Positions 1,352 to 61,339 of a DNA stretch of 64,000 nucleotides are shown piece by piece. Origin of the DNA: Candidatus Uhrbacteria bacterium (GTDB lineage Bacteria > Patescibacteriota > Patescibacteriia > UBA9934 > UBA10169); the NCBI GenBank assembly GCA_016187485.1, contig JACPJO010000004.1, positions 56,306-120,305 of the forward strand, read 5' to 3'. The translations under genes were made by a program, and so were the position numbers. The stretch's first letter is position 1. Every line of letters starts with the position of its first letter. Below the pieces are notes generated by a model. That model made no database searches. It saw only the letters and a program-made list of their open reading frames with translations, and was not told where the DNA came from.

Positions 1352-4300
1352 TTATTGCGGACAGTACTCCAAACGGAGGTCGGAAAGATTCACTGTACCC
1401 GACCCGTTGAAGTTGATGTGGAAAGGAATCTGGAAAGCGCCACTTGCGGGACATTCAAATCCGGGCGGGAACGGGAGAAGGACATCATCGCCTTCGCTTG
1501 CGACACCCCCCGCAAAGCCTGTCGTAGTTTCGTAGTTCAAACTGAGACCCAGAATATTTGCGGTGATGGTGTCTACCACTGCCTGGAAACCATCGGCGTC
1601 TGGAGCGTTATAGGCATATTCCACGCCATCGGCGGGAGGCGCACACTCCGGCGTGCCGTCGCTATTGTTAAGTTCATAGAAGTCCACGCCGCATACATCA
1701 CTCGAAAAATGATTATTGACGGCAATTTCGTCGTCGTTTGAAGTAAAGGCGACCGTATAGATAACCGTATTTTCCAGGGTGTCAAGCGTGTCAGACGCGG
1801 CAGCGGCAGCGAGAAGATCGTCCGATTCCCCATCGGAAACAAGAATCACAATACGCACGTCCGTATCTGGCCGATCGGTAGTGAGAAGTTCGTATGCGCG
1901 GCTAAGCCCGTACGCCGTATGCGTACCCAACCCCGTGCCCGGATTTGCTAGTTGGGAAAGGTTAAGTACAAGTTCACTCTTGCTTGCCGTGAACGAGGCA
2001 TTGGGTAGAGGATTCTCTGCAAGCACATCGGTAGCTGGATTTACTTCATTGAAGATGACAATGCCGCTTGCAAGATTGCCGTTGGGGAACGCGTCATAGA
2101 GTTCGTCTGCCGCATCTACGAGCGCTTCTTTCACAATATCAAGACGGGTTGATTCGTCTGCTTCTGGCGGTGTCCCATCAATCTCGTAGGACATGGAAGT
2201 CGAATAATCAATAAGAAAGATGAGATCTATGTTGGGTGGTTCGACATCATCAAAGCTCACCGAGGCGTACAGCGCCGAACCCACAGTACAGGCCGGGAAG
2301 TAGAGAGTGGCATTATCGGGAGCGCCGGCGGTGGCAGGGTCTTCTGACAAGTAGCTCCTCAAATCCACCGAGGTCGTTCGATTGACGGCCGTCTCGCTTT
2401 GCGCCAGCACAGCTCCTTGTTCGAGTGTGAACGGACATGCAAGCGAGCAGGAAGCATTGCAATCTTGAAGCACGCAGCTTCCAAACGTGTCAGGATTAAA
2501 GATTGGGTCTCCGCATGCCTTGTTATAGTCAAAAGTTTCCGGAGGGGGTTGGGCGCAAGGAAATCCGTTGTACACATATTCCCCATCAACGGCCGTCGCA
2601 GACCCGCCATTACAGGTACCCACAAGCGCCTCGCACGTGTAGTCGAAGGGGCAATCCGCATCCGTCCCACAGACTTCGCCGCGCACTCGTTCGGTGGGGT
2701 TGATTGCTCCCTTGAAGCAGTAAGACGGCACGCTTGCTCCATCGCATACCTCTCCGCCGTTGATAACGCCGTCGCCGCAGTAACCACCCGTGACCGTCTG
2801 GTACGTACATGTGGCAGAGCAATAGTTACAGGTGTCACTGTAGGCGGGATTGCAGGGCACCCCGTTTTGTCCGCCGAGGTCGCATGACTCAACGCCAACG
2901 TTGCGCACGCCGTCGCCGCAGACATTTTGCGTGCAGTTATTCCGACACGCATCCTGTTCGTCCGTATCTCCATCATCGCATTCCTCGATCCCCTCCGGAA
3001 TGCCGTTGCCGCATGATCCCACAGGTGCACAGGCCTGCCAGCCGCCCGGGATCCCCGTCGTTGTAGGCCACCGGCACGCATTGGTATAGGGCGGCAGTCC
3101 AAGTCCGTTACACACACGTGTGCGCGTTTGCGGAAGACCAAGCGTATCAGACGCCGTACTTGCAGGGCAGACTCCCGCCCAGGAAAGTGCGGGGTCGCCG
3201 CAGAGAGAGCCGTCGGCACACTCTGCATTTGTCGTACACGGATCCCCATTGACACAGAGTTTCCCGTTCCACTGCTCGTTTGTGCCATCACACTCTTCCG
3301 CGGCACCGTTTACGGTACCGTCCCCGCACGAAGGAGCAGTCCCGGAACAATCCGCTGCGCATCCATATGCAGGATCTGTCGAGTACAGACCGTTGAGATA
3401 ACTTGCCGACGCCGTGCGGCATTGCGGAGTGGGCGCCAGCAAGTTAAAGGACGCGGCGCTGCCGCAATCACAGGCTTCAGCTCCCCCGATAAGTCCATCC
3501 CCGCAAAAGACCGCACTCGTCCACGTGCAGTTGGTCGCACAGAACCCATATTGACCGTTGAGCGGCCCATCATCACACGTCTCCGAACCTTGAATCACGC
3601 CATCCCCGCAGTAGTTAGGAATACAGGCGGCAGAGGTAGAAGCAGTCTGGAAGGCTTGGCATCCCAGGCCCGACGCGTCCGACGGCCCCACGCACGGCAC
3701 GGCGCGCGTTCCCGATGTGGCCACACAGGAGCCGTTGCTTCCGCAATCACTGGCGGTAGTACAAGGCAGGCCATTAAACGAGAGGTTCACGGCGTTTGCA
3801 CACACATTCGTGGAGCAAGAAACAGATGTTGTCTCTCCTACTTCGCAGATTTCTCCCGATCCAATCAACCCGTCTCCGCAGACATTCGTTGCGGTGAAGG
3901 TCGCTCCATTACAGGTGCGCGCATTTTGGAATCCGCCAAGTACAGGCGTGCTCGCAAACGGAGAGGGAAGATTTGCGTTGCCGACATAATATGTCCCGAG
4001 ATTAGGGAGGGGGGAATCCACATCCACGGGCGAGGCCCACGCGAGCGTCGTCTCGGCAGGAGGAGCCACGCCAAATTCCAAATCGGTCGAAAGCCAGAAC
4101 TCTTCCCCGCCGATACTTCGATAGGTGTACACGTGCGAATCTGCCGGACATATCGCCTGCGCTGCCAGAGCGTTGTAACACGTCTCTGCGTCGTAGCCAT
4201 CCGGACAGCTCACAAATGTGTTGAGCGGATCTGTCGGGACCGCGCGGCCAAGCGCGTTGGCCAATTGCGCCTGCCAGCTTGGCCAGGCAGAAAGGGAGAA

Positions 4301-7300
4301 TGAGGGGATATACGTCCCCGATCCAAGCGTCGGCACCGACGCCACGCATTCCTCGGCGCCTGAACAATCGCTGTCTTCAAAACAGAGTTGATCTTTAGTG
4401 ACACTGCAGTGCCGGTGCGTCTCGCCGTATGATGTAAGGGCCTCGCCAATAGTGCGTACGTCCGTAAGACGCTTGAGATCGCGACGGAGCTTGTCCTTGT
4501 CGGCATCGCAAAGCGCCGGCGAACCTCCCGTTGCCACCGCCGCGCACTCTGCATCCGTTGAGCACGCAACAAGCTCCCCATTCACTTCGATCGGGTCCAT
4601 GTCCCCGCTTGGGAGAGGCGTTGCGCAAACCCGGCCGTTTGTGACGGTCAAAAGCCCTGTCGTCAAGTCACGTGCACCGGCAAATTCCCATGCCCCAAGC
4701 ATAGCTTGATAGATTTGCCTGGTTTCCGCTGACGCCCCTTCGTTGTACGCAATCGCATACATATTGGGATAGAGCGCCGCGCCGGTGTTAGGTGCGGAAA
4801 CGTAGACCGTTCGGCCGTCACGCACACCCTCGAACCCGTCCACCGATTCCGCAGCAGGAGAGCCGACAAATCCTTGACCGGCAAACCACTCGGCGGGAGA
4901 GAGATAGTTGCTGTTGGAGAGCACGCGCACACCGATCGCGTCGTGTATATCCGGATCGTCCACGGCAAAAAGGAACTCCTTAAAAATCCCCGGTGACGCA
5001 ATGTTCTGCGTTTTTTGGACAACCGAGAGAGCCGGTAAGTCGTCACTCGTGCCGCGCTCCCCTGCATCACGGCAATAAAATGCGGAGAAATTCGTGTAGG
5101 GCGCAGTAAGCGTAATGCCCGGCGCTGGGTCTCCCGCATACCAGGCAGAATCTACAAACGGGAAATGTCCCACAGCCGGCCACGGGTTTTCACAAAGGAA
5201 CACGCGCTCCTCTACCGTGCCGCCCACGATTCGCCCAACGGTAGTGGGTGAGAGAACCGTATCTTCCATGATACGCAGTTGCGCCATGACATTCTCAACC
5301 CCATTGATCGCGGGGTTTGCCGTGGAAGCAGTTGCTGTTGTGTTGGCGCTGGTTGAAGCACCGGGAGTCACAACGACAATATTGGGGTCGGCGACACTCG
5401 AATTCCACCCCCATGTGGTAGAGACGGAAGTTCCGCTCCATGCCCACGCATACACTCCCGGCACACTCACGATAGGTTGCGCCAACGGCCCTATAAGTGT
5501 CATCGCCTCCGCCGCAAGTGGATGAGCCGTGTTCGCCTGTGTAAACAGGCCGGGGCTCGCGGAGAGGTCTTCCACCTGCACAAAATCTACGTCGCAAATA
5601 GTATTCCCCGTAGCAAAAATACGGGACCACGATGCCTCAAAGTTGGCAAAGACCGAGGAGTTTCCCACGAGCCCAACGCCCCATCGACTCAATACCCCAT
5701 CAGGATTCGCATCCGTATAGTTCGCATCCGCTTCTACCAAAATGCGGTAGAGCGTCTGTGGTTCAAGGATTTGGTTGTAGAGCACCGACACGCGTGTGAT
5801 GAACTCATCAGGATTCGTCTCGACATCTTCGATGGAGAGATTGGAGGCGACAATGCAGCTCACACTTCCCGCCCACGCGCGTGGCGCCACCACGCGCAAA
5901 ATATTCTGCCACAGACGGGCATACCACGGACGGTCAGAAAAATCCTGCACGATGACGGGCGTCGTATTCGTGGGGCAATCAGAGGCCGTCGTGTAGCGTA
6001 CGTCGGCCGAGTCGTAAGCGCCATTGCCGTTCGTGTCCTCCCCAAAAGCCGTAAGCACAATATGCTTCGTCCCGTTATCTTCCAAAATGCTCTCTTCACC
6101 CATTTGTTGCGTAAAGGCCACACGCACAAGCGCGTTTCGACACACGCCGGCACTCGTGGTGGCAAGCGGAACCGTGGTGCTTTCCTGTACCGCCGGACGA
6201 TCAAAACAGCAGTCACTCACCCCACAGCCAAGCAGGGCCGGCTCGCCGCATGTCGCATCGGTTGTGCAGGAGCACGAAAGACCGATCTCGGCCGTGCCAA
6301 ACGCTGAAGTCTCTGTTGCATCGTCCGAACCCGTTGCGCGAAGCGTCGTACGGACTTCCCCGTCCACGACCGCTTGGGTGGCAACGGCCTCGATTTCAAG
6401 CGTCTGGAGGGGATCGTACGGCCCCACCCCATCATCCGCGCTTGAGGAAATTTCACATTCCTCTCCAAGTTCCGGCAGACCGCCGTTGCCACAGAAGGAT
6501 GGCACCGGATAGAAAACCGACGAGCCTTCGTTCTGGCATTGTGCGGAGCACCCGTCACCACTTGTCGTATTTCCATCATCGCACTCCTCGCCGGCTCCTG
6601 TCGTCACGTTGTACTCTCTCCCGTTGGAACCACAGACACCATTCAAAATTCCCGTGGGGGTTGTGCGCGACCAGACACCCGGACCGAGCGGTTCAGCTAA
6701 ACAATTCGCGCTACACCCGTCCCCACTCGTGATACCTCCGTCGTCACAATCTTCCCCTTCTTCGACGTCACCGTTTCCACAGTGCACGCCAATATCGGCG
6801 CTTGGAGTGGAACCTTCGCGCAAACACTGCGCCGAACACCCATCGCCGCTTATCGTATTGCTGTCTTCACACTCCTCCCCGCCGGAACGGCCGTCCGGTG
6901 TTACTGTGTCGAATTGTGAAATCGTTCCGTCATTACATGTAAGTCCCGCCGCCGTCGAACCTTCGTTAAGACATGTTGCGGAACATCCGTTGCCGTCCAG
7001 GTTGCCGTTGTCGTCACATTCTTCGCGCCCTTCCCGGATACCATTGCCACAACACAACAGATCGGTTGCGGGGTTTGCACATGCGGTCACCCCGACGGTT
7101 TGACACGTGGGAGAACACCCAATGGGGTCAAGCGCGACATCACAATCTTCGTAGAAAGGATTGACGATGCCATCTCCGCAGACCGCCGCATACGAAATCG
7201 TCCCCGTACGCAAACACTGTGCACTGCACGAGAGAGCACGATCGGTGTCAGTGTCAAGAGTGGCCGTGAGCGTGCCGTCGGGAAGGTATGTCGCTACCGA

Positions 7301-10300
7301 GATCTGCGTATTCGTGGCAGAGTTCGTCACTTGATTCACCAGCCAATCCCATGCGTAAGCAAGCGGATTCAATACTTGGCCGGCCACGGCACAGCTGTCC
7401 GGTCGCCCCGTCACTGACGCGGAGAAACTTGCGCGGTCCCCCACGGCTTCAAGAATCACCTCAAGGGGGGAGAGAGCAACGTTCCCAATCCCGCAGGGGG
7501 CCGCATTATCCCGCGTGCGGAAAACCCACGAATAATAATTCCCGTAGTTGAGCGGTATAACCGGTGTGCCGTCCGGATTCGTAACCCCCCAGAGGGGAAT
7601 TCCCGGCACGGTAGGACTTTGCGGCTCCGATGTAATCCCCCCCCAGATCATCACACGATAATACATCGAGGGAGAAAGATCCCCGGCAAGTGTAAGTGCA
7701 ACGCCGTCTTCGACGTCCAATGGATCGTTTACAAAAGAGAGCGCTGTGGGGACAGGAGAGGTCGGATTGAAGGTTGCACAGAACTCATCCTCACAGGCAA
7801 AAACGCGCACATTTGGTTCAAGCACGTTTACCGCATTAACGTGACTCCCCGTAAGCCCCGTCGTTCCTGTTGCTTGCATGGCCGTGTTAAAAACGGCACC
7901 CACTTCTGCGTTCACACAGGCTGTCGTGCACTGTGGGTACGCGAGAGATACGGCGGGGTCGGTGAAATTCACGATCAATTCTTCCGTGTCAGAGATGCTG
8001 TAGCCAATGGGCGTGGCCGTGACAAGTGCCGGCTGTCCCGCATTGGTTTCCTCTTCAGGCACCACAAAGATAGGCTGGAGATTTTCAAAGGCCTGCGCGG
8101 CATTCCCCAAAAACAGGAGCGCATCGTTGATGTCCCCTTCAAGAGGACCGTACTGCGGATCTGCCGTCACGGGATCTGCGGCCTCCTCTGCAGCATCAAG
8201 CGCCGAAGAGAGCGTATCACCGGCAAGCAGCACAGGATTGAGCAGCGAGAAGACCGTGACGGTCTCTGCTGCGAGAGCCGTGTTCGTGCTTGTGAGCGTC
8301 GCAGCTGTTGGCCCTACCAGAGCATGCGCTTCAGGGAGGATCGTTTGCAGCGCCAGGAGAGCATCGGCAAGATCTGCAAGGTTGGTCGGAACCTCATCAA
8401 GAAGAGTTGTTGCCGGCGTGGCCGATTCCGGATCCCCAAGTGTTACCGTGTAGGGCGGATCCACATCAAAGTGGATGTTCTTTCCCTGCCGGTCGAGTTC
8501 CCACGCAAAGGCGTAATCATCAGGGTTGATAAGCACACACGCCCCCGTTGCAGGCAGAGCAACATACGGAATCGTCTCGTCGCTCGTCGCCGTATAATCT
8601 GGCGGACTTACGAGCACCTCTTCTACTTCGCAGGGAGTGGTGCTGGAGCGCGTCTTGAATCGATATGCATACGCCTGTGCCAGAGGAACACCACGGTTGT
8701 TTTTAATACCTGTGGTCGCCGTCGCGCGATACCAGGTATCGGGAAGCAGAGCCGTCGCAGGCGAGAAGATCAGGGAGAGATTCGTCGAGAGCAGAAAGTC
8801 TCCGGCAAGATGTCCTGTGGCAACCGTCTCGCAAGGATCCACTCCCGTCCCCGTACACCGATCTACGTAGAATGAGCCGTTGGTAAACGTAGAGATGTCC
8901 ATGCCGCTCGCGGGAAGGCCGGGAGTGAAGGAAACAGAGACCACCGCATTTGTACAGACGGCATCCCCATCGCTCCACAGTGTTGAGGGCGTGGGGGAAA
9001 TAAATGAGGTATCACACTGCGTACGGATTGTCGGATAGTTCGGGATGGGGCCGGTCGAGAAATGATACACGTACTGGGCGTTCACACTTGGCTCCCCGCA
9101 GGCGGCGGGCGTTGCCGCGCAACTGCCGTTCGAGCAACAAATTTGCGATGCCGTACACAACGAGGGCGTCTCTTGGCAATTCCCTACCGCAAAGAGAAGC
9201 TCATTTGATGGTGCGCCAAGAACCGTCACAGAAACCGGACCTGAAATGGCGCCCGTCGGTACAGGAGCGCTGACGTTCTCCGAAGAAGTGAAGCCAACCG
9301 GGCTTGCGGCTACCCCATCGTGGAAGGTGACACTCACTTCCGACGCGCTTGCGCCAAGATTGCTTCCGTAAATATTCACCGCTGTCCCCACAGGCCCCGC
9401 CACAGGCGCAAGCGCGCAAACGCCGGGTGTTGCAGGCGCCGAGACAACCGTGAAATCCTCCGCGTTACTTTGCGGACTCGTAGGGTAATCCGCACGGCGC
9501 ACAAAAATAGATTTGGGATTGGATTCCTCCGACGTGGTCATACTGGCTGGCACTTGCGCCACAATCGCCGAGTCCGTCCACCATGCATTCTGGCACGCAG
9601 CGGGAAAGTCCGGTTCAAACACCACATCGCCAAGCAAAGGGTCCTGAAAGACAACCACCCCTTCGGTAGATCCAAATCGTTGGCCTAAAATAGTCACGTA
9701 TTGCCCCACGCCACCTTCGGTCGGATGCGCAACACATTGTCCGGTTCCACACTGCGTATCGGACACACAAAGCTGCCCCGCATGTACGATATCGTTTTCA
9801 CACAAGGACCGGCCGGATGTCACTTCGCTGATGAACGGCGCACTGGAGGCATCTTCCGGTGAGAGAACACTGAAGTCAATCGTGTTAGACCCCTCATCAT
9901 TCACGAACACTTGGAGATCGTAGTCGCCCGGAGTACTCGGCGGAACAAGCAAGCTGATAAGCGCATCAAGCCACGTATCCACAGCGGGAAAGAATGACGC
10001 GCGATATACCGACGGACCGCTCAAGTAAAACGCCCCGACCGTCGGATCCTCCCCAAAATTATTTCCCACCACCGAGATGCGCGTAGCGGGCAGGCCGTTG
10101 CCCGGCGTTACCGCACAGAGCCCAGGACGGCGCACGTCATTCACATCAAAGTCTTGGATAAGCGGGCCGAAATCGTCATCCGTTCGGTCGGTAATTCCTG
10201 GCGTCGTGGCCGTCTCTGCTTTTACCACGCCGATCGCCCCATCTGCTGCCTCGGCAGGTACCGCCACAACTACCTGCGTGTTGTTCCAGCTCGGCGCCGG

Positions 10301-11728
10301 ACACGCAATGGGATCCACTTTAATGTCATCCGCCTCGGTATCCGGAGAACCGTAGAAGTACACGATGTTCGCTTGTGCACCAAAACCTGTTCCGTGAATC
10401 GTGACGAAATTATCCGGCGCGCCATTGCCAAGCGAAACCGATTGAATCCGCGGACCCGTGACGCAAACGCCGTTTACACAAAGCCCCGACGTGCAATCGC
10501 TGTTTTGGACACACACCGACGCATCGCAAGAAAGACAGTCCTCCCCGCCGCAATCTATCGCCGCCTCATCTTCATTTTGAATGGTGTCGGTACAGTGCGG
10601 GGCAAGAGCCGTCACGGGCACGCTGGAGGATGTCGTTTGATTACCGGCACAATCTGCCGCCACCGCGCGAATGGCATGGGTACTCGCTGGGGTAAGGTTC
10701 CCGGGCGTCCACGAACCCGATGCAAGACAGCTCACGGGACCGTCCCCCGCACAGGATGCCGGACCCGCAGAATCCACGGCTGTATTATCTACCGTAAAGG
10801 TGGTCACGCCCACACCGGAATCATCTGTAAGACTTGCCTGCAGAGACAGGGGGTAGCCCTCGTAGACAGGCGCGCCAGACGACGGATCAGTAATAGTCAC
10901 GGTTGGCCCCGTTGTATCTATGGCATCTGTCGTGGTGAAACCAAAGGAGCACGGCGCGGCAAGCGAACAGGCAATCTCTACGCCGTCCGCGCTTCGTAGA
11001 CCCTCAGAAACACGTACTTCGTAAGAAGTCGCCGGCTCAAAGCAGCGCTCAGAAGAACTGGGACAAGAAGCATCCGGCAGAACAGTAAGCACACGGCCAG
11101 AAGCGGAGAGATCCGTGGAAATAGCGTCCCCTCCGACAGGCGTCACGGTTATGTAAGGGGCAAGGGCGCTCGCGGACGTGGGAAGGTTTCGATTGAAGAG
11201 AATCTGAATCTCCGCATTTCTCGGCACCGAGGGAACCGAGGCCAGACACCCCCACGACGTAACGACAAATTGTGTGCGGTAGTCGGCAGGACATGTGGCG
11301 CAGGTGCTCAAATTTGTATCCTCCGGCCCCCCAATGACGTTGTTCTGCGACGTGGCGCCCACGAGCGATGAAATGACGAATTGCGCAATAGCAAAGGACG
11401 CCAAAATGATGGCAAGCCCGATGACCGCATTAATAATCATGCCGCGCGCTTTGCGCACCTTTTCCTCTTCTCCCTTCGAGAGCATCCACAAAAACCCGGC
11501 GTACAAGATCATGCCAATCAAGACCACGCCAGAGAACGTAATCGCTGCGCGCACAAGCCGCGCAATGATAAGACGGATGTCCGATGTCCCTCCAAACCCC
11601 GCTTGTGTGGCAAAATCTCCGAGGCCCTCGGTAATCGGCGACGAGGCGGCAAAAACAATATCGGGAAGCCACACGAGTGCGCCGAGAGAGAGGAGGAAGA
11701 CCAGTTGGGAGATGATGCGGCGTTTCAT
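1352..11728 (-). CDS. Giant (3458 aa) secreted, membrane-anchored surface protein. N-terminal signal peptide plus two-helix pilin-like hairpin, IPT/TIG-like beta-sandwich repeats, two arrays of Cys-rich CGDG/CGNG-x-EECDDGN-x-DGCS repeats (Myxococcus cysteine-rich-repeat type), C-terminal von Willebrand factor A domain with a MIDAS motif
   Basis: Single uninterrupted ORF with balanced amino-acid composition. N-terminus MKRRIISQLVFLLSLGALVWLPDIVFAASS, then TM helices GVVLIGMILYAGFLWM and AVIGLAIILASFAIAQFVI. Motifs VTIHGTGFG, VTILGQRFG and VNIYGSNLG are IPT-like. Repeats such as CGNGIREGREECDDNGNLDGNGCSATC occur about 6 and about 10 times. The VWA motif is DLIFLIDYSTSMS...GLGTHTAYGL...VILVSDGES. 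Confidence 0.85.
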   Translation of the reverse strand: MKRRIISQLVFLLSLGALVWLPDIVFAASSPITEGLGDFATQAGFGGTSDIRLIIARLVRAAITFSGVVLIGMILYAGFLWMLSKGEEEKVRKARGMIINAVIGLAIILASFAIAQFVISSLVGATSQNNVIGGPEDTNLSTCATCPADYRTQFVVTSWGCLASVPSVPRNAEIQILFNRNLPTSASALAPYITVTPVGGDAISTDLSASGRVLTVLPDASCPSSSERCFEPATSYEVRVSEGLRSADGVEIACSLAAPCSFGFTTTDAIDTTGPTVTITDPSSGAPVYEGYPLSLQASLTDDSGVGVTTFTVDNTAVDSAGPASCAGDGPVSCLASGSWTPGNLTPASTHAIRAVAADCAGNQTTSSSVPVTALAPHCTDTIQNEDEAAIDCGGEDCLSCDASVCVQNSDCTSGLCVNGVCVTGPRIQSVSLGNGAPDNFVTIHGTGFGAQANIVYFYGSPDTEADDIKVDPIACPAPSWNNTQVVVAVPAEAADGAIGVVKAETATTPGITDRTDDDFGPLIQDFDVNDVRRPGLCAVTPGNGLPATRISVVGNNFGEDPTVGAFYLSGPSVYRASFFPAVDTWLDALISLLVPPSTPGDYDLQVFVNDEGSNTIDFSVLSPEDASSAPFISEVTSGRSLCENDIVHAGQLCVSDTQCGTGQCVAHPTEGGVGQYVTILGQRFGSTEGVVVFQDPLLGDVVFEPDFPAACQNAWWTDSAIVAQVPASMTTSEESNPKSIFVRRADYPTSPQSNAEDFTVVSAPATPGVCALAPVAGPVGTAVNIYGSNLGASASEVSVTFHDGVAASPVGFTSSENVSAPVPTGAISGPVSVTVLGAPSNELLFAVGNCQETPSLCTASQICCSNGSCAATPAACGEPSVNAQYVYHFSTGPIPNYPTIRTQCDTSFISPTPSTLWSDGDAVCTNAVVSVSFTPGLPASGMDISTFTNGSFYVDRCTGTGVDPCETVATGHLAGDFLLSTNLSLIFSPATALLPDTWYRATATTGIKNNRGVPLAQAYAYRFKTRSSTTPCEVEEVLVSPPDYTATSDETIPYVALPATGACVLINPDDYAFAWELDRQGKNIHFDVDPPYTVTLGDPESATPATTLLDEVPTNLADLADALLALQTILPEAHALVGPTAATLTSTNTALAAETVTVFSLLNPVLLAGDTLSSALDAAEEAADPVTADPQYGPLEGDINDALLFLGNAAQAFENLQPIFVVPEEETNAGQPALVTATPIGYSISDTEELIVNFTDPAVSLAYPQCTTACVNAEVGAVFNTAMQATGTTGLTGSHVNAVNVLEPNVRVFACEDEFCATFNPTSPVPTALSFVNDPLDVEDGVALTLAGDLSPSMYYRVMIWGGITSEPQSPTVPGIPLWGVTNPDGTPVIPLNYGNYYSWVFRTRDNAAPCGIGNVALSPLEVILEAVGDRASFSASVTGRPDSCAVAGQVLNPLAYAWDWLVNQVTNSATNTQISVATYLPDGTLTATLDTDTDRALSCSAQCLRTGTISYAAVCGDGIVNPFYEDCDVALDPIGCSPTCQTVGVTACANPATDLLCCGNGIREGREECDDNGNLDGNGCSATCLNEGSTAAGLTCNDGTISQFDTVTPDGRSGGEECEDSNTISGDGCSAQCLREGSTPSADIGVHCGNGDVEEGEDCDDGGITSGDGCSANCLAEPLGPGVWSRTTPTGILNGVCGSNGREYNVTTGAGEECDDGNTTSGDGCSAQCQNEGSSVFYPVPSFCGNGGLPELGEECEISSSADDGVGPYDPLQTLEIEAVATQAVVDGEVRTTLRATGSDDATETSAFGTAEIGLSCSCTTDATCGEPALLGCGVSDCCFDRPAVQESTTVPLATTSAGVCRNALVRVAFTQQMGEESILEDNGTKHIVLTAFGEDTNGNGAYDSADVRYTTASDCPTNTTPVIVQDFSDRPWYARLWQNILRVVAPRAWAGSVSCIVASNLSIEDVETNPDEFITRVSVLYNQILEPQTLYRILVEADANYTDANPDGVLSRWGVGLVGNSSVFANFEASWSRIFATGNTICDVDFVQVEDLSASPGLFTQANTAHPLAAEAMTLIGPLAQPIVSVPGVYAWAWSGTSVSTTWGWNSSVADPNIVVVTPGASTSANTTATASTANPAINGVENVMAQLRIMEDTVLSPTTVGRIVGGTVEERVFLCENPWPAVGHFPFVDSAWYAGDPAPGITLTAPYTNFSAFYCRDAGERGTSDDLPALSVVQKTQNIASPGIFKEFLFAVDDPDIHDAIGVRVLSNSNYLSPAEWFAGQGFVGSPAAESVDGFEGVRDGRTVYVSAPNTGAALYPNMYAIAYNEGASAETRQIYQAMLGAWEFAGARDLTTGLLTVTNGRVCATPLPSGDMDPIEVNGELVACSTDAECAAVATGGSPALCDADKDKLRRDLKRLTDVRTIGEALTSYGETHRHCSVTKDQLCFEDSDCSGAEECVASVPTLGSGTYIPSFSLSAWPSWQAQLANALGRAVPTDPLNTFVSCPDGYDAETCYNALAAQAICPADSHVYTYRSIGGEEFWLSTDLEFGVAPPAETTLAWASPVDVDSPLPNLGTYYVGNANLPSPFASTPVLGGFQNARTCNGATFTATNVCGDGLIGSGEICEVGETTSVSCSTNVCANAVNLSFNGLPCTTASDCGSNGSCVATSGTRAVPCVGPSDASGLGCQAFQTASTSAACIPNYCGDGVIQGSETCDDGPLNGQYGFCATNCTWTSAVFCGDGLIGGAEACDCGSAASFNLLAPTPQCRTASASYLNGLYSTDPAYGCAADCSGTAPSCGDGTVNGAAEECDGTNEQWNGKLCVNGDPCTTNAECADGSLCGDPALSWAGVCPASTASDTLGLPQTRTRVCNGLGLPPYTNACRWPTTTGIPGGWQACAPVGSCGNGIPEGIEECDDGDTDEQDACRNNCTQNVCGDGVRNVGVESCDLGGQNGVPCNPAYSDTCNYCSATCTYQTVTGGYCGDGVINGGEVCDGASVPSYCFKGAINPTERVRGEVCGTDADCPFDYTCEALVGTCNGGSATAVDGEYVYNGFPCAQPPPETFDYNKACGDPIFNPDTFGSCVLQDCNASCSLACPFTLEQGAVLAQSETAVNRTTSVDLRSYLSEDPATAGAPDNATLYFPACTVGSALYASVSFDDVEPPNIDLIFLIDYSTSMSYEIDGTPPEADESTRLDIVKEALVDAADELYDAFPNGNLASGIVIFNEVNPATDVLAENPLPNASFTASKSELVLNLSQLANPGTGLGTHTAYGLSRAYELLTTDRPDTDVRIVILVSDGESDDLLAAAAASDTLDTLENTVIYTVAFTSNDDEIAVNNHFSSDVCGVDFYELNNSDGTPECAPPADGVEYAYNAPDADGFQAVVDTITANILGLSLNYETTTGFAGGVASEGDDVLLPFPPGFECPASGAFQIPFHINFNGSGTVNLSDLRLEYCPQ

Positions 11729-22202: not shown

Positions 22203-23825
22203 CTACTTGATGTCTTCGCCGTAGCAGCTCTGGGCTCTGCCTTCGGCGTTCTTGGTGCAGAGGGTGGGAATGCCCCCGCAGTAGTACCGGTCGTAGAGGG
22301 TGCGCTTCTCGCGACCCTTCACGTTGACGGCACCGGGCACGCACTCGCCCTTGAGGACATCGCCCGTCAGCATCGCCTCGAGCGCGCGCTGGGCGTACCC
22401 AGCTTTCTTCTCGGCGGCGAGAGCGCGCTCGTCAGCCTTGCCGAACTTGGTCTCGGCCAAGTGCGCCGAAGCGGCAGACTCCGCCGCAGCGGCTTCAGCA
22501 GCCGAGCGCAGTTCCTCCCGACGGGACGTTTCCTTCGAGAAGACGGTGATGAGACTGGCCACGTGGTCGTTCATCCACTCCGACGACTCGCCGATGCTCG
22601 CGATCTGCTCGCTCTGGGTTGCGTCCACGCGGCCCTGGTGCATCCAGAACGCAACGATTCCAGTAGCAAGGACGGTAAAGAGGCCGATCACGATCGTCCG
22701 CACACGCTTGAGCGCGTGGAGAGCCAGAGAGAGGCGTTGACCGAGATCTTCCACCTGCTTCACGGACGGGAGCGCGATGACCGGCATCGGCCGCTCCGTC
22801 CCGGGGGTCGTCTGCTGCCTGGACGGCGGCGGCTCGGGGTAGGCCAGCCTGCGCAGTGCCACCATCCCCTGCTCCATGGTCATGAGCCGATCCCACATAC
22901 CGTCGAAGACCGCACGGTTGTACGCCGGCTCTCCGCTTCCGTCGCAGATGACCGCGACGATCTGCGTCCACATGCCCGTGAGGTCCGGACGACTGATCGT
23001 GAAGGGGAACTTCGTCGCCAGGATGGCCCAGACATTCTGGGCGTTCATCGCCTTGGGAGCATCCCCCATCCCGAGGACCTCGGCCCACAGGTAGTCGCGG
23101 CGCAAGTTGGGCAGACGCCACAGATCTTCGGGACTGGGCGGCGCCTTCGCTGCCTGATCTTCACGCTTGAGCTGCTTCCAGATCGTGTCAAAGCTCGCCC
23201 GTCCGAGGGGAGGAAGATCACCCTGGCAGAGCATCAACTCCACCATCAGGTTGAAGTCAAGACGCATCTGCGGAAGAGCGACGATGTTGGGGAAGTGCCG
23301 CTGAAGCAGCCGCCAGGCGTTGTCCTCGTTGATGTCCCGAGGGTCCATCCCCTCGATCTCGAAGACCCGGCAGAGATACGCCCACCGGACGTCCAGGCCC
23401 CTCCAGTTGGCCTCAGGGTTCGGATCCGGCGCCACGGGCGGGCCGTTGCCCCCTCCGTTCGCTTCAAGTTCCGCCGCCACGCGGTGCATCTCGTCGGGGT
23501 CGAAGCCCTCCGTTTCCTCATCGTTCCCGATGCCATCGTGGATGGCTGCGGCCAGCACGTCCCGCCGACGGTCACCCTGGAACAATGGCCCCTCCGGAAT
23601 GCCGGGAATGGATCCCCCCTCTTCGTCTGCTGTCTGCACCGGCGGGGCACCACCAACCACCGGCACGATGCCGGGGCGCGGAAGATCCGTCGAGCCGGGG
23701 GCAGCCTCTCCCTCATCCCCAGGCGGTCGGGGAAGAAATCCCTCGTCTTCCACGATCTGTGCGGGACCCTTCTGGCCCTTGTTTCCATCGTTGCTTGAAA
23801 TGAGCATTCTGTTGTCTCCCTCCAT
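22203..23825 (-). CDS. Hypothetical 540-aa protein with compositionally foreign (very high GC3) codon usage. Disordered Pro/Gly/Glu N-terminus, two tandem aromatic-rich repeats of about 85 aa, one TM helix, a coiled-coil Ala/Glu segment and a Cys-rich C-terminus
   Basis: Balanced amino-acid composition on the minus frame. The overlapping plus-strand ORFs are Arg-rich artefacts. Repeats are ...WRLLQRHFPNIVALPQMRLDFNLMVELMLCQGDLPPLGRASFDTIWKQL and ...VWAILATKFPFTISRPDLTGMWTQIVAVICDGSGEPAYNRAVFDGMWDRL. TM helix IVIGLFTVLATGIVAFWMH. Confidence 0.6.
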   Translation of the reverse strand: MEGDNRMLISSNDGNKGQKGPAQIVEDEGFLPRPPGDEGEAAPGSTDLPRPGIVPVVGGAPPVQTADEEGGSIPGIPEGPLFQGDRRRDVLAAAIHDGIGNDEETEGFDPDEMHRVAAELEANGGGNGPPVAPDPNPEANWRGLDVRWAYLCRVFEIEGMDPRDINEDNAWRLLQRHFPNIVALPQMRLDFNLMVELMLCQGDLPPLGRASFDTIWKQLKREDQAAKAPPSPEDLWRLPNLRRDYLWAEVLGMGDAPKAMNAQNVWAILATKFPFTISRPDLTGMWTQIVAVICDGSGEPAYNRAVFDGMWDRLMTMEQGMVALRRLAYPEPPPSRQQTTPGTERPMPVIALPSVKQVEDLGQRLSLALHALKRVRTIVIGLFTVLATGIVAFWMHQGRVDATQSEQIASIGESSEWMNDHVASLITVFSKETSRREELRSAAEAAAAESAASAHLAETKFGKADERALAAEKKAGYAQRALEAMLTGDVLKGECVPGAVNVKGREKRTLYDRYYCGGIPTLCTKNAEGRAQSCYGEDIK

Positions 23826-41130: not shown

Positions 41131-41753
41131 AAAGAGGCAATAATGCGCGCCTGCACTTCCGCAACCGACCCCATGCCGTCCACATGGTGGAGAAGTCCTT
41201 TCGCCTCGTACTGCGCTATAACGGGAGTCGTGTCCTGCTCATAAATTTCCAGGCGCCGCATGATTGCTTCGGGTTTATCGTCGTCGCGTTGCACAAGAGT
41301 TCCCTCGCCGCAAAGACAGGACTCGCCCGCGGCATGCCCCTCGGCGGCACGATACACACGTCCGCAGACAAGGCACGTCAAGCGTCCAGAGAGGCGCCGC
41401 AAAGTTTCCTCTTTTGGAATTTCGATCACAAGCACATGCGTCGGCTCGTCTACCTGTTCCATAATCTCGTACTGACTCTGATTGCGCGGGAAACCATCCA
41501 GAATATATCCGTTTGTTGTATCGGGCTCTGCAAGGCGGTTTTTAAGAACCTCCGCCGCGACCGGATCGGATACAAGGTTCCCTTTGTCGGTAATGCGTTT
41601 GATCTCTTGGCCAAGAGAGGAGCCCGAGGAAACAACGTCGCGTAAAAGCTGGCCCATGCCAAATGCTGGAATATTGAGGTGCTTTGAAAGGAGTTCCGCC
41701 TGCGTCCCCTTCCCGCTCCCCTGGGGGCCCATCATGAGGATTTTGTAGGTCAT
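41127..41753 (-). CDS. adk: Adenylate kinase with a zinc-binding lid
   Basis: P-loop GPQGSGKGTQ and lid CLVCGRVY...CLCGEG. ATG at 41753. The track ORF extends to 41831. Confidence 0.9.
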   Translation of the reverse strand: MTYKILMMGPQGSGKGTQAELLSKHLNIPAFGMGQLLRDVVSSGSSLGQEIKRITDKGNLVSDPVAAEVLKNRLAEPDTTNGYILDGFPRNQSQYEIMEQVDEPTHVLVIEIPKEETLRRLSGRLTCLVCGRVYRAAEGHAAGESCLCGEGTLVQRDDDKPEAIMRRLEIYEQDTTPVIAQYEAKGLLHHVDGMGSVAEVQARIIASL

Positions 41754-41940
41754 AGCGGGAACAGTGTAGCAGAGGTTGGCAGGGTGAGGTAGGGGCCCAC
41801 AAGGGTTCCCTCGGAGCTTAATTCCGGGCAACAGCCATCGTTAAAATGACAAAGCCCCAGTGCGAGATGGTTCGAACCGAAGGTTCGAACCATCTCGCCT
41901 GGGGCGAGACACGTCGTGCGCAGACGACGTGAGTGGAGGT

Positions 41941-42411
41941 TCAGGGGACCGGCAGGAAGCCGACGAAGGAGACGTCGTAGTGCCAGGAGTCGGCGGGCCA
42001 ATGCCGGGCAAGATCACGACCGAACTGGTCGGACATGAAGCCCGGCACGGACAGCGACCTGCTGTCGTGGTACCAGCACGCGTCGATGTCGGGGACGGAG
42101 ATGTGGTAGCCCCGAGGATCAAAGACGCGACACCACCACGTGAAGGCGCCAACGTGGCCCAGGGCACCCTTCTTGCGGAAGTGGTCCCGGACGACGTCCG
42201 CCGGGATGACCTCGCCCGGCCGGAGGTCGGGCGTCCAGACCATCGGCTTGAACTTGCAGCCGCGACCCGGGATCAGCTTGCCGCTCGAGCCCACATAGTA
42301 GTCCCAGATGGTGTAGCCCTGATCCAAGTGGGTGAGATCGAGTTCGCGGGCCACGAGGGCGGTCAGCTTGGTAGCGTGGAGGTCGGGGACCGTGATGATG
42401 TCGTAATTCAT
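41941..42411 (-). CDS. Hypothetical 156-aa protein with compositionally foreign (GC3 near-saturated) codon usage, inserted between secY and adk. Trp/Tyr/His-rich, with a possible Cys...His (GRGCKF...GALGHVGAF) papain-fold-like motif (speculative)
   Basis: Codons are almost exclusively G/C-ending (AAG, GAC, GAG, TTC), unlike the flanking rp genes. Coherent amino-acid composition. The antisense ORF 41860..42543 is an Arg/Asp/Val artefact. Confidence 0.55.
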   Translation of the reverse strand: MNYDIITVPDLHATKLTALVARELDLTHLDQGYTIWDYYVGSSGKLIPGRGCKFKPMVWTPDLRPGEVIPADVVRDHFRKKGALGHVGAFTWWCRVFDPRGYHISVPDIDACWYHDSRSLSVPGFMSDQFGRDLARHWPADSWHYDVSFVGFLPVP

Positions 42412-42490
42412 GTTCCAGTTCCTTCCTTCTTGTCCGACACCAAAGTGTCAGACATGGGGGGTTGTCAAACTTATCACTCCAAACCTGCTA

Positions 42491-42507
42491 ACAACACGGG
42501 GTGTTGT
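42491..42507. promoter_or_regulatory. Operator-like perfect inverted repeat ACAACAC-GGG-GTGTTGT. A related half-site GGGGGGTTGTCAAAC and the palindrome GACACCAAAGTGTC lie upstream. All are in the 5' region of the inserted gene
   Basis: Seen directly at 42440-42510. Confidence 0.4.
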
Positions 42508-42605
42508 CACAAAAAACAGGTCTGGAATGACAAGCTCTTTTAAAGGACGAAGGTGTGAATTTACCAGAAAATCAGACTTTTGTCAATGAATATGGCCTAA
42601 TCTAG

Positions 42606-42640
42606 CATAAAAGCAAGGCCTTTGCCTTGCTTTTTTATGC
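42606..42640. terminator. Bidirectional rho-independent terminator ATAAAAGCAAGGC-cttt-GCCTTGCTTTTTTAT immediately 3' of secY
   Basis: 7-bp GC-rich stem flanked by an A-run and a T-run. Confidence 0.6.
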
Positions 42641-42659
42641 TGCCTCAAGACAACTCTTT

Positions 42660-43925
42660 TTAAACGTCGTATGCGTGAAGAGTCAGCTGCGAATCAACCT
42701 GTTTGATGACATCAATTACCACGGCAACCACGATCAGGATGGATGTGCCTCCAATAACGAGGTTTGCACTTCCCGTAAACTGCTGAATAATGAGCGGGAG
42801 CACGGCCAAGAGCGCCAGGAAGAGAGCGCCAGCAAACAACACGCGATTTACCACCCATCCCAAATACATAGCCGTAGATTGCCCCGGGCGAATGCCAGGA
42901 ATGAAAGCGCCACTCTTTTGAAGGTTCTCCGCTACACGATCAGGATGGAAAATCACCGAGGTATAGAAGTAGGTGAAAGCAAACACGAGCACAAAGTACA
43001 GCGCGCCGTAGACGGTTTGATTATTCACGACTTGTAACAGCCATGTTGCCGTGTCCTTCACCCACTCGGTGCGCGCATTCACCAGAAACTGTCCCACCGT
43101 TGTAGGGAGAAGCAGAATAGAGATTGCAAAAATAATTGGGATCACGCCCGCCATATTGAGCCGCAGCGGCAAATGGCTCGTGGCGGCACCAAGCAAGCGC
43201 GACCCACGGATCTGTCGCGCATGCTGGATAGGAATATTGCGTTGAGCCTCCTGCATCACCACGACGGCGTAGATCGTGACAAGCACCATGAGCACAAACA
43301 GGATCAGTGTGATCAAGCTGTCTTTGGTGTACACACTGAATGTCTGTTGAAGAAACGAGGGAAGCCCGGCGATAATTCCGGCAAAGATGATAATAGACGT
43401 GCCATTGCCTATCCGATATTCAGAAATAAGCTCCCCAAGCCACATCAGGAACACAGTCCCGGCAACCATAGAAAGGAGTGCTAATGCCATCGTCCAGCCC
43501 GACAGACTTGCGACAAGCGCTGGAGCCTGTTGCGACAGGAGTGCTGTGAGTCCGTACGCCTGGATAAAGGCAAGCGGCACGGTGGCCAGACGCGTCCACT
43601 GCATAATGCGCTGGCGTCCACGCTCTTCCTTTTGCATTTCTTCAAGAGACGGCACGACCATTCCGAGAAGCTGGAAGATGATAGACGAGGTGATGTAGGG
43701 AGCGACGCCGAGCGCGACAAGGGAAAAGTTGTCAAGGGTGCCGCCCGAAAAGATGTTCAAAAGCCCGAAGAATTGATTCCCTTCGAGTACTTGTGAAATA
43801 TCGCTCGCGTTCATGCCGGGCACCGGCACGTGCGCGACAAACCGAAACAATACCAACATGCCTCCCACTGCAAGCAGACTCCGGCGGAGAGCAGGGATCC
43901 GAATGACCTGGGTGAGCTTTGACAT
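42660..43925 (-). CDS. secY: Preprotein translocase SecY
   Basis: 10-TM SecY signature ...GGTSILIVVAVVIDVIKQ... Confidence 0.92.
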   Translation of the reverse strand: MSKLTQVIRIPALRRSLLAVGGMLVLFRFVAHVPVPGMNASDISQVLEGNQFFGLLNIFSGGTLDNFSLVALGVAPYITSSIIFQLLGMVVPSLEEMQKEERGRQRIMQWTRLATVPLAFIQAYGLTALLSQQAPALVASLSGWTMALALLSMVAGTVFLMWLGELISEYRIGNGTSIIIFAGIIAGLPSFLQQTFSVYTKDSLITLILFVLMVLVTIYAVVVMQEAQRNIPIQHARQIRGSRLLGAATSHLPLRLNMAGVIPIIFAISILLLPTTVGQFLVNARTEWVKDTATWLLQVVNNQTVYGALYFVLVFAFTYFYTSVIFHPDRVAENLQKSGAFIPGIRPGQSTAMYLGWVVNRVLFAGALFLALLAVLPLIIQQFTGSANLVIGGTSILIVVAVVIDVIKQVDSQLTLHAYDV

Positions 43926-60946: not shown

Positions 60947-61339
60947 CTAGACGGAGCAGGCGCCCCAGTGGCGACCGCTGTTGGCCGCACGGCGGGTGCC
61001 GCGGCGAATGACGGCGTACGTGCCGGTGTTGGCGCGCACGCGCTCGAGACCGAGGACGCGGCGCAAGTTCTGGTAGAGGCCCTTGGGCTCCTCGAAGCGC
61101 CACGCGTTCACGGCGATGCGGCGCTTGGCCCCGCGCGCCCACTCGGGCGCATCTTCCGGGCTCTCCTCCACCACCCAGCCCCGTCCGAGCGGCTTGCTGT
61201 AGATGGCCGTCACCTCCACTCCGGCGAACGCCTCACTGTCGAGCAGGAAGTGCACCTGAACCTTCAGGCGCTTTTCGAGCATCTTCGTGAGGGCGTCGAA
61301 GTGCGGGTCGTCGGCCACCACCACCGTGCTATCAGGCAT
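60947..61339 (-). CDS. Hypothetical 130-aa protein with compositionally foreign (high GC3) codon usage
   Basis: MPDSTVVVADDPHFDALTKMLEKRLKVQVHFLLDSEAFAGVEVTAIYSKPLGRGWVVEE... ATG at 61339. The track ORF extends to 61447. Confidence 0.5.
   Translation of the reverse strand: MPDSTVVVADDPHFDALTKMLEKRLKVQVHFLLDSEAFAGVEVTAIYSKPLGRGWVVEESPEDAPEWARGAKRRIAVNAWRFEEPKGLYQNLRRVLGLERVRANTGTYAVIRRGTRRAANSGRHWGACSV

Follow-up and report, generated by a model that had tools for sequence, protein, structure and literature searches.

The stretch analysed here, referred to as the window, comprises 64,000 nucleotides of a metagenome-assembled genome (MAG) of Candidatus Uhrbacteria, within the Patescibacteria or candidate phyla radiation (CPR). 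Between secY and adk it carries a gene for a protein of 156 amino acids, ORF-X, read like its neighbours on the minus strand, which sets the gene order used below. ORF-X is very probably a minimal binding protein of C-type-lectin (CLec) fold, which belongs to a Patescibacterial family of variable proteins of diversity-generating retroelements (DGRs) and stands in a transcription unit of its own. A preliminary description of the window had presented this segment as a single-gene insertion in the spc ribosomal-protein operon, with a foreign gene for a possible Cys/His enzyme, its own terminator and operator-like palindromes. The terminator after secY, the low-GC leader, the palindromes and the 156-aa open reading frame (ORF) that it listed were all found, at most a few bases from where it had placed them, and are collected in Table 1.

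The family was delimited by an exhaustive phmmer search of 1.84 billion representative proteins; a word-indexed protein search had given only two, and then seven, matches. At least 163 clusters (50% identity) were recovered at E<1e-3, 65 of them at E<1e-10. Common to the members is a ~150-aa domain, often with an N-terminal extension of 50–100 aa in front of it; ORF-X, a bare 156-aa domain, differs from many of them in lacking this extension. Searches of ORF-X and 67 family members against Pfam, PHROGs, PADLOC and the sequences of the PDB gave no match, and no family member was found on the viral contigs of IMG/VR. In an alignment of 67 members the near-invariant residues are P9, G51, P61, R75, F78, G85, A89, F90, W93, G101, P107, L134, W143, F149, V150 and F152, which are of a structural kind (Gly, Pro, aromatics and one Arg).

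A C-type-lectin fold is predicted for ORF-X. Its AlphaFold model (pLDDT 95) matches only CLec folds and those of the formylglycine-generating enzyme (FGE); two DGR variable proteins, Mtd and TvpA, are among the matches. The FGE or sulfatase-modifying-factor fold (pFGE, 1y4j; C-terminal domains of EgtB and OvoA) counts among the closest known systems, but ORF-X has no match to the Pfam FGE-sulfatase family, lacks the FGE catalytic cysteines and is much smaller. A papain-like, NlpC/P60 or CHAP hydrolase with a catalytic Cys/His pair, as suggested in the preliminary description, did not withstand the comparison: no Cys or His is invariant among the 67 members, C52 and C94 are not conserved, no hydrolase family was matched, and the model is that of a lectin. 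Only among the 13 closest members is C112 invariant and H103 nearly so, and there C112 is a scaffold residue of the variable region (VR) described below.

The connection with DGRs was observed directly in homologues of ORF-X. At one locus (L085/L086), the homologue P0151, 45% identical to ORF-X, adjoins genes for bAvd and for an RVT_1 reverse transcriptase (RT). The last 129 nt of its gene (1655–1783) recur with 88% identity 517 nt downstream (2172–2300), and since at essentially every mismatch the downstream copy has A where the gene has a different base (13 A>G, 4 A>T, 1 A>C), the two copies are a VR and its template repeat (TR). Starting from the RT of this locus, a second one from Uhrbacteria, L107, was found, in which two tandem family members precede Avd and RT. 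The proximal target is 34% identical to ORF-X (E 8e-17), and its VR (3955–4090) is 87% identical to a TR at 4455–4590. The same locus is represented by two assemblies, one from an NCBI MAG and one from a JGI metagenome (L108), which over the 10,966 nt compared present exactly 20 differences, all located at 3967–4068 inside the VR and at TR-adenine sites. Because the differences lie only inside the VR, a member of the ORF-X family is being diversified, and the homologues at L085 and L107 are verified DGR targets. Across the family, variability is concentrated in the columns encoded by TR adenines, with an entropy of 3.11 bits against 1.32 at the non-A sites of the VR and 2.08 in the rest of the domain (Mann-Whitney p about 1e-7). 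One further locus, L093, is syntenic with L085 downstream of the gene, and its contig stops before the expected position of the TR.

A cellular clade of DGRs restricted to Patescibacteria, and variable regions placed in C-terminal CLec folds, have been described previously (PMC8144416). In the relatives of ORF-X, the adjacent Avd and RT copy the TR into the last ~45 codons of the target and randomise the codons that hold TR adenines, which reshapes a binding surface on a fixed scaffold. ORF-X keeps this scaffold in the equivalent region: C112, L120, V122-P123, R132, L134, W138, W143 and the SFVGF motif are all present. It differs from the homologues at the mutable sites, where its Trp, Tyr and His residues cluster; these W/Y/H-rich positions between the scaffold residues are the sites encoded by TR adenines in the verified homologues.

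Several results weigh against the assignment of ORF-X to this system. No near-repeat of 41831–42660 that could represent a TR occurs in the window (blastn, word size 7), neither RT nor Avd was recovered from it with the L085 proteins as tblastn queries, and a profile hidden Markov model of 60 DGR RTs reached a best E of only 1.7 against its six-frame translations. An adjacent DGR is present at only two or three of about nine distinct family loci with usable context. The MAG and four Logan assemblies give one and the same ORF-X sequence (100% identity), without an assembly break in the VR; this test has little power, since a verified target of that project does not vary between its MAG and its Logan contig either. 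Concerning the fold, the best matches of Foldseek against the PDB were C-type lectins, at non-significant values (best E 0.23), and concerning ligand and cellular role, neither a signal peptide nor a membrane segment was seen by inspection of ORF-X.

The DGR-free flanks around ORF-X reach 42 kb on one side and 22 kb on the other, and the window holds no second member of the family. Five other family loci (L001, L087, L090, L092 and L094) likewise present no TR, RT or Avd within their 1–8 kb flanks. Family members sit in unrelated housekeeping contexts, next to rplJ, an IscS/NifU cluster, hrcA-grpE-dnaK, UvrD or Pif1. As no TR, RT or Avd is found in the window, ORF-X would be either a remote target or a fixed homologue of variable proteins, without a cognate TR. 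Both situations have been described for cyanobacterial CLec paralogues, which comprise variable proteins inside DGRs, remote variable proteins and non-diversified homologues, the last amounting to ~45% of the orthologues (PMC7517822).

The base composition of ORF-X links it to the same class of genes. Its GC content at third codon positions (GC3) is 0.88, with A (A3) at 0.01 and C (C3) at 0.59, while the 53 ORFs of the window have a mean GC3 of 0.60 (standard deviation, sd, 0.054), about 5 sd away. The preliminary description had read this as foreign codon usage; the anomaly is real, but a foreign origin does not follow from it, since in six of the six Patescibacterial DGR loci examined a high GC3 and a low A3 extend over the entire target gene, and the RT, Avd and host genes beside it are free of the bias. 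Targets range from 0.66 to 0.92 in GC3 and from 0.01 to 0.10 in A3, and RTs from 0.30 to 0.56 in GC3. By locus, the values of target GC3, target A3 and RT GC3 are 0.74–0.84, 0.04–0.07 and 0.44 for L107 (neighbouring genes, GC3 0.51–0.53); 0.66, 0.10 and 0.30 for L105, whose 93-aa target is of a different family (neighbours 0.30–0.37); 0.79, 0.07 and 0.56 for L109; 0.92, 0.01 and 0.50 for L110; 0.92, 0.01 and 0.48 for L111; and 0.73, 0.08 and 0.54 for L085 (neighbours 0.66–0.73). The GC3 excess of DGR-linked targets over their own RT is thus +0.23 to +0.44, with only +0.19 at L085. In family members without a nearby DGR the excess is +0.13 (L001), +0.10 (L094), +0.09 (L090), +0.05 (L092) and -0.02 (L087), and ORF-X, with +0.28, resembles most of the actively targeted genes examined. 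Its composition is therefore a trait shared by DGR target genes as a class, and does not in itself testify to recent transfer.

Atypical GC of whole DGRs has been used as a signal of transfer by Wu et al. (PMC5758913); a literature search turned up no report of a bias specific to the target. A bolder proposal is that ORF-X is diversified in trans and that the synonymous purge of A (and T) from the whole gene is a mechanistic footprint of DGR activity, which we regard as unlikely. Possible causes of such a purge would be GC-biased repair of long conversion tracts reaching beyond the VR, or selection against adenines in the target transcript.

Two orphan genes of the window, unrelated to ORF-X, share the GC3 bias, which speaks against taking it as a mark of DGR targets; a common foreign source for the GC3-rich genes of the window is possible. 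One of them (60947–61339, minus strand) encodes about 130 aa from an ATG at 61339, with GC3 ~0.83 and wobble A and C of 0.03 and 0.52; it has no Pfam match and lies with flanking hairpins of its own between a GATase-like gene and ndk. It was considered as a hidden paralogue of ORF-X and rejected (hhalign probability 1.6%). The other (22203–23825, minus strand) encodes 540 aa, has a GC3 of 0.80 and no Pfam match, and lies between der/engA and dprA; its product begins with a Pro/Gly-rich N-terminus and contains repeated ~90-aa modules and a single hydrophobic segment.

Stored automatic gene calls put the GC-rich DGR targets of L110 (4331–5074) and L111 (1471–2211) on the wrong strand. These calls can be likened to the 227-aa ORF antisense to ORF-X (41860–42543, plus strand), which belongs to no family, has no homologues and was rejected as a shadow ORF of a GC-rich gene.

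Table 1 Features of the secY-adk junction and the ORF-X unit (coordinates within the window)
Feature	Coordinates	Strand	Basis and remarks
secY	42660–43925	-	Pfam SecY, E 5e-101; last gene of the spc-type ribosomal-protein cluster, upstream of the insert
Bidirectional intrinsic-terminator-like hairpin directly after secY	42604–42641 (core 42609–42634)	both	A-tract, GC stem, U-tract
Putative sigma70-like promoter of ORF-X	42558–42586	-	TTGACA-17-TAAATT with TG upstream; 10/12 consensus positions; predicted from consensus match
Structured 5' leader, ~140 nt	42412–42551	-	RNA fold; GC 0.41–0.43
30-mer, branch node of the assembly graph	42501–42530	-	5' arm of the leader hairpin; independent metagenome assemblies break there
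Shine-Dalgarno-like AAGGAAGGAA	~42418–42430	-	End of the leader, before ORF-X
ORF-X, 156 aa	41941–42411	-	NCBI MBI2484871.1, HYW18_01850; stand-alone domain of predicted C-type-lectin fold
VR-equivalent region, aa 111–156	41944–42081	-	Alignment with VR/TR of L085 and L107
Small 8-bp GC-rich hairpin	41910–41931	-	RNA fold; starts ~10 nt past the ORF-X stop codon
Large near-perfect palindrome	41854–41905	both	24-bp stem, then CTTTGTCATTTT
adk, 208 aa	41127–41753	-	Pfam ADK, E 1.6e-37; gene downstream of the insert

The arms of the hairpin after secY, AAAAGCAAGGC and GCCTTGCTTTT, form an inverted repeat of 11 nt with 100% complementarity, and its RNA fold has a z of -4.1. Promoters of the TTGAC type are also present before homologous genes at other loci. 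On the 3' side, the large palindrome contains perfect arms of 17 bp (41862–41898, 3-nt loop) and folds at -60.6 kcal/mol (z -9.2). It is separated from adk by the 100-nt stretch 41754–41853, and adk sits downstream of two strong hairpins. The start of adk is the ATG at 41753 and not the TTG at 41831, as given by independent 208-aa gene calls on Logan contigs; in the 187-nt spacer before it, the promoter scan found no consensus promoter and a Shine-Dalgarno sequence was not seen by eye. ORF-X would then form a self-contained, monocistronic unit, the boundaries of which we infer from the predicted promoter, the leader fold and the 3' hairpins. Judging from the two strong hairpins, it is plausible that the insert cuts adk and map off from the spc promoter, as had been suggested. 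An imperfect direct repeat of 31 nt (22/31 identical) was also noted at 42529–42559 and 42649–42679, one copy spanning the secY stop and the other lying 120 nt downstream; the copies bracket the terminator hairpin and the promoter, and could be due to chance or be the relic of an insertion.

The leader contains a long imperfect hairpin (42467–42537) of ~31 bp with at least five G·U pairs, and a 10-bp hairpin (42431–42454) before the ribosome-binding site. Its sense strand folds far better (-62.9 kcal/mol, z -6.5) than the antisense strand (-41.4 kcal/mol, z -2.0), which argues for a structure in the mRNA and not for an operator bound by protein. The palindromes of the preliminary description are thus present, but as arms of strand-asymmetric RNA hairpins with G·U pairs and not in the operator role given to them. 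The motif TGACAAC[AC]CCCC[GA]TGT occurs in the window only at 42452–42467 and 42494–42509 (chance mean 0.15) and is absent from 107 loci outside the source genome. No Rfam 15 family reached its gathering score with the leader and the 3' element (ar9, 26.9 against 45; mir-434, 24 against 100). Leaders of homologous loci share no motif with that of ORF-X, and only the -35 box matches the leaders of L107. The hairpin may act in stability, processing or translational control of the transcript.

Every homologue has a promoter-like site, and all of them end in strong terminator hairpins, usually followed by T-runs; the palindrome at 41854–41905 is therefore most simply a terminator. It is possible that it additionally forms a cruciform with a second role in DGR homing, by analogy with phage BPP-1, in which a hairpin/cruciform just downstream of the VR is needed for homing (Guo et al. 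2011, PMC3240598). The 8-bp hairpin closer to the gene resembles in position, by analogy only, the hairpins or cruciforms downstream of DGR variable regions. A comparable element follows the 274-aa target of L109, where a complete DGR with target, TR and RT (4162–6999) lies immediately upstream of rpsL-rpsG-fusA: a perfect GC-rich palindrome of 26 nt (5001–5026), 15 nt past the stop and without a T-run.

The secY-adk junction was compared in 80 loci fetched around relatives of SecY, 47 of which carry both secY and adk. The best SecY relative is only 64% identical, which indicates that the species of the source MAG has no representative in the genome collection. In the closest loci with both genes (L005, L012 and L019) the gap between them is 29–86 nt, and at none of the 80 loci is ORF-X found there. 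Measured against the nearest relatives, the ORF-X unit is an insertion, as the preliminary description had it. Its premise that secY is normally followed directly by adk holds for these closest relatives and is weak for the phylum, in which 13 of the 47 loci, about a quarter, carry an extra 0.4–2.8 kb at this point. The inserts include a guanylate-kinase-like gene and membrane proteins of ~280 and ~305 aa, which recur in several lineages, and, in the Uhrbacteria locus L006, a GIY-YIG-like ORF of 100 aa. These lineage-specific inserts occupy the same junction as ORF-X, and none contains a member of its family. As the junction is variable in Patescibacteria, the position of ORF-X is less surprising than at first sight.

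The five secY contigs listed from Logan, out of 11, end at 42502, and all four Logan contigs with ORF-X begin at 42530. The 30-mer 42501–42530 is unique in the window and absent from IMG/VR. Since contigs start or end there in several samples, it is a branch node with other flanks in the community. A paralogous cassette elsewhere in the genome or the community is a plausible cause of the break. The leaders of the tandem paralogues of L107 share exact 30-mers.

The present state of ORF-X can be read in two ways. In one, it is a fixed homologue of variable proteins, with a patch frozen after horizontal acquisition or after loss of the DGR, and it now serves as an accessory gene; we give this close to, though somewhat less than, an even chance. 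Most family loci lack a DGR within their flanks, almost half of the cyanobacterial orthologues are non-diversified (PMC7517822), ORF-X is invariant across samples and missing from the junction of its nearest relatives, and the two unrelated GC3-rich orphans suggest a common foreign source. Its composition is nevertheless as extreme as in active targets, and palindrome and scaffold are intact with no decay begun, points which are not decisive. The other way supposes an active target in trans: a DGR elsewhere in the genome would rewrite aa 111–156, with the 3' end and the hairpins as homing site. The conserved VR scaffold is consistent with it, and so are the hairpins directly past the stop, placed as BPP-1 requires them (PMC3240598) and as they follow the L109 target, and a GC3 excess which matches most DGR-linked targets and exceeds those of DGR-less family members. 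Among Uhrbacteria of the site that yielded the source, DGRs are abundant (L105 is an example), there is precedent for remote targets (PMC7517822), and the branch node in the leader hints at a second locus with leader sequence in common, like the tandem paralogues of L107. The window, however, is devoid of TR, RT and Avd, the five assemblies show no sequence variation, and among the thousands of Patescibacterial RTs returned by a search for RT homologues, those of Uhrbacteria all belong to MAGs other than the source. Remote diversification of ORF-X is therefore held to be possible but rather doubtful.

A mobile cassette, be it an integron cassette or a passenger of a miniature inverted-repeat transposable element (MITE) or insertion sequence (IS), bounded by the leader hairpin and the 3' palindrome, would account for a compact unit flanked by hairpins, for the branching of the assembly graph in several samples, for the imperfect 31-nt direct repeat and for the unrelated contexts of the family members. 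Against it, neither leader nor palindrome has a second copy in the window, in IMG/VR or at other loci, no transposase or integrase was noted beside the unit, the palindrome is without attC features by eye (no GTTRRRY core, no extrahelical bases), and IMG/VR holds no family members on viral contigs. We consider such a cassette improbable, and a repeated element (MITE, repetitive extragenic palindrome or attC) was rejected, as the unit is single-copy in the window and only the direct repeat with 22/31 matches was found. Least of all do we expect ORF-X to be a hydrolase of the Cys/His type (papain-like, NlpC/P60 or CHAP), gained by horizontal transfer and controlled by a DNA-binding regulator of the leader palindromes. 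Cys and His residues are indeed present in the protein, and palindromes in its leader, but the conservation pattern and fold described above do not suit a hydrolase, the palindromes fold as strand-asymmetric RNA, and the motif has no further occurrence in the window and none in the 107 loci; this reading is hardly credible.

Among known systems, ORF-X as a DGR-type variable protein is closest to the CLec variable proteins Mtd of Bordetella phage BPP-1, TvpA of Treponema denticola and TaqVP of Thermus aquaticus, with which it shares the predicted CLec/FGE-type fold. As in these proteins and in the Patescibacterial DGR clade 2 (Roux et al. 2021), the variable patch corresponds to the C-terminal ~45 residues. 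A conserved C-terminal motif of the type ...W..(S)FVGFR is a further point in common, as may be the hairpins just downstream of the gene, of which the larger could be a terminator only, and homologues of ORF-X are rewritten from a TR at adenines, beside Avd and RT. ORF-X itself differs in having no TR, RT or Avd within 22–42 kb. In this it resembles the cyanobacterial remote variable proteins and variable-protein homologues (Vallota-Eastman et al. 2020, PMC7517822), which are CLec paralogues scattered over loci without a DGR; some of these are targeted in trans and others not, and most are predicted to be cytosolic. Those belong to a different phylum and to a sequence family unrelated to that of ORF-X, and their classes were separated by genome-wide comparison of TRs.

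Taken as a DGR-type protein, ORF-X would act as a domain-only, apparently cytosolic ligand-binding protein. Its gene would have a promoter of its own and yield a monocistronic message with a highly structured leader, strong hairpins would insulate secY and adk from it, and the unit would have lodged at a junction where lineage-specific insertions are frequent in the phylum.

Elsewhere in the window, a giant protein of 3458 aa (1352–11728, minus strand) presents a T4SS-pilin-like N-terminus and TIG, Big_5, Big_7 and VWA domains, and is a typical large surface protein of CPR bacteria.

What appeared to be a foreign enzyme with operators in the spc operon is thus better described as a solo hypervariable binding protein of DGR type in a CPR bacterium. 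An unannotated lectin-fold family of at least 163 clusters, without a Pfam entry, has been defined, and DGR targeting is verified in some of its members. Horizontal transfer should not simply be concluded from an anomalous GC3 in target genes of DGR type. If the purge of A and T is a footprint of DGR activity, composition alone would flag DGR targets, including orphans whose retroelement is unassembled or distant. If the bias holds across DGR catalogues, it would offer a cheap detector of targets and orphan variable proteins in fragmented metagenomes, and, if it is general, it would pose the mechanistic question of how DGRs shape whole target genes.

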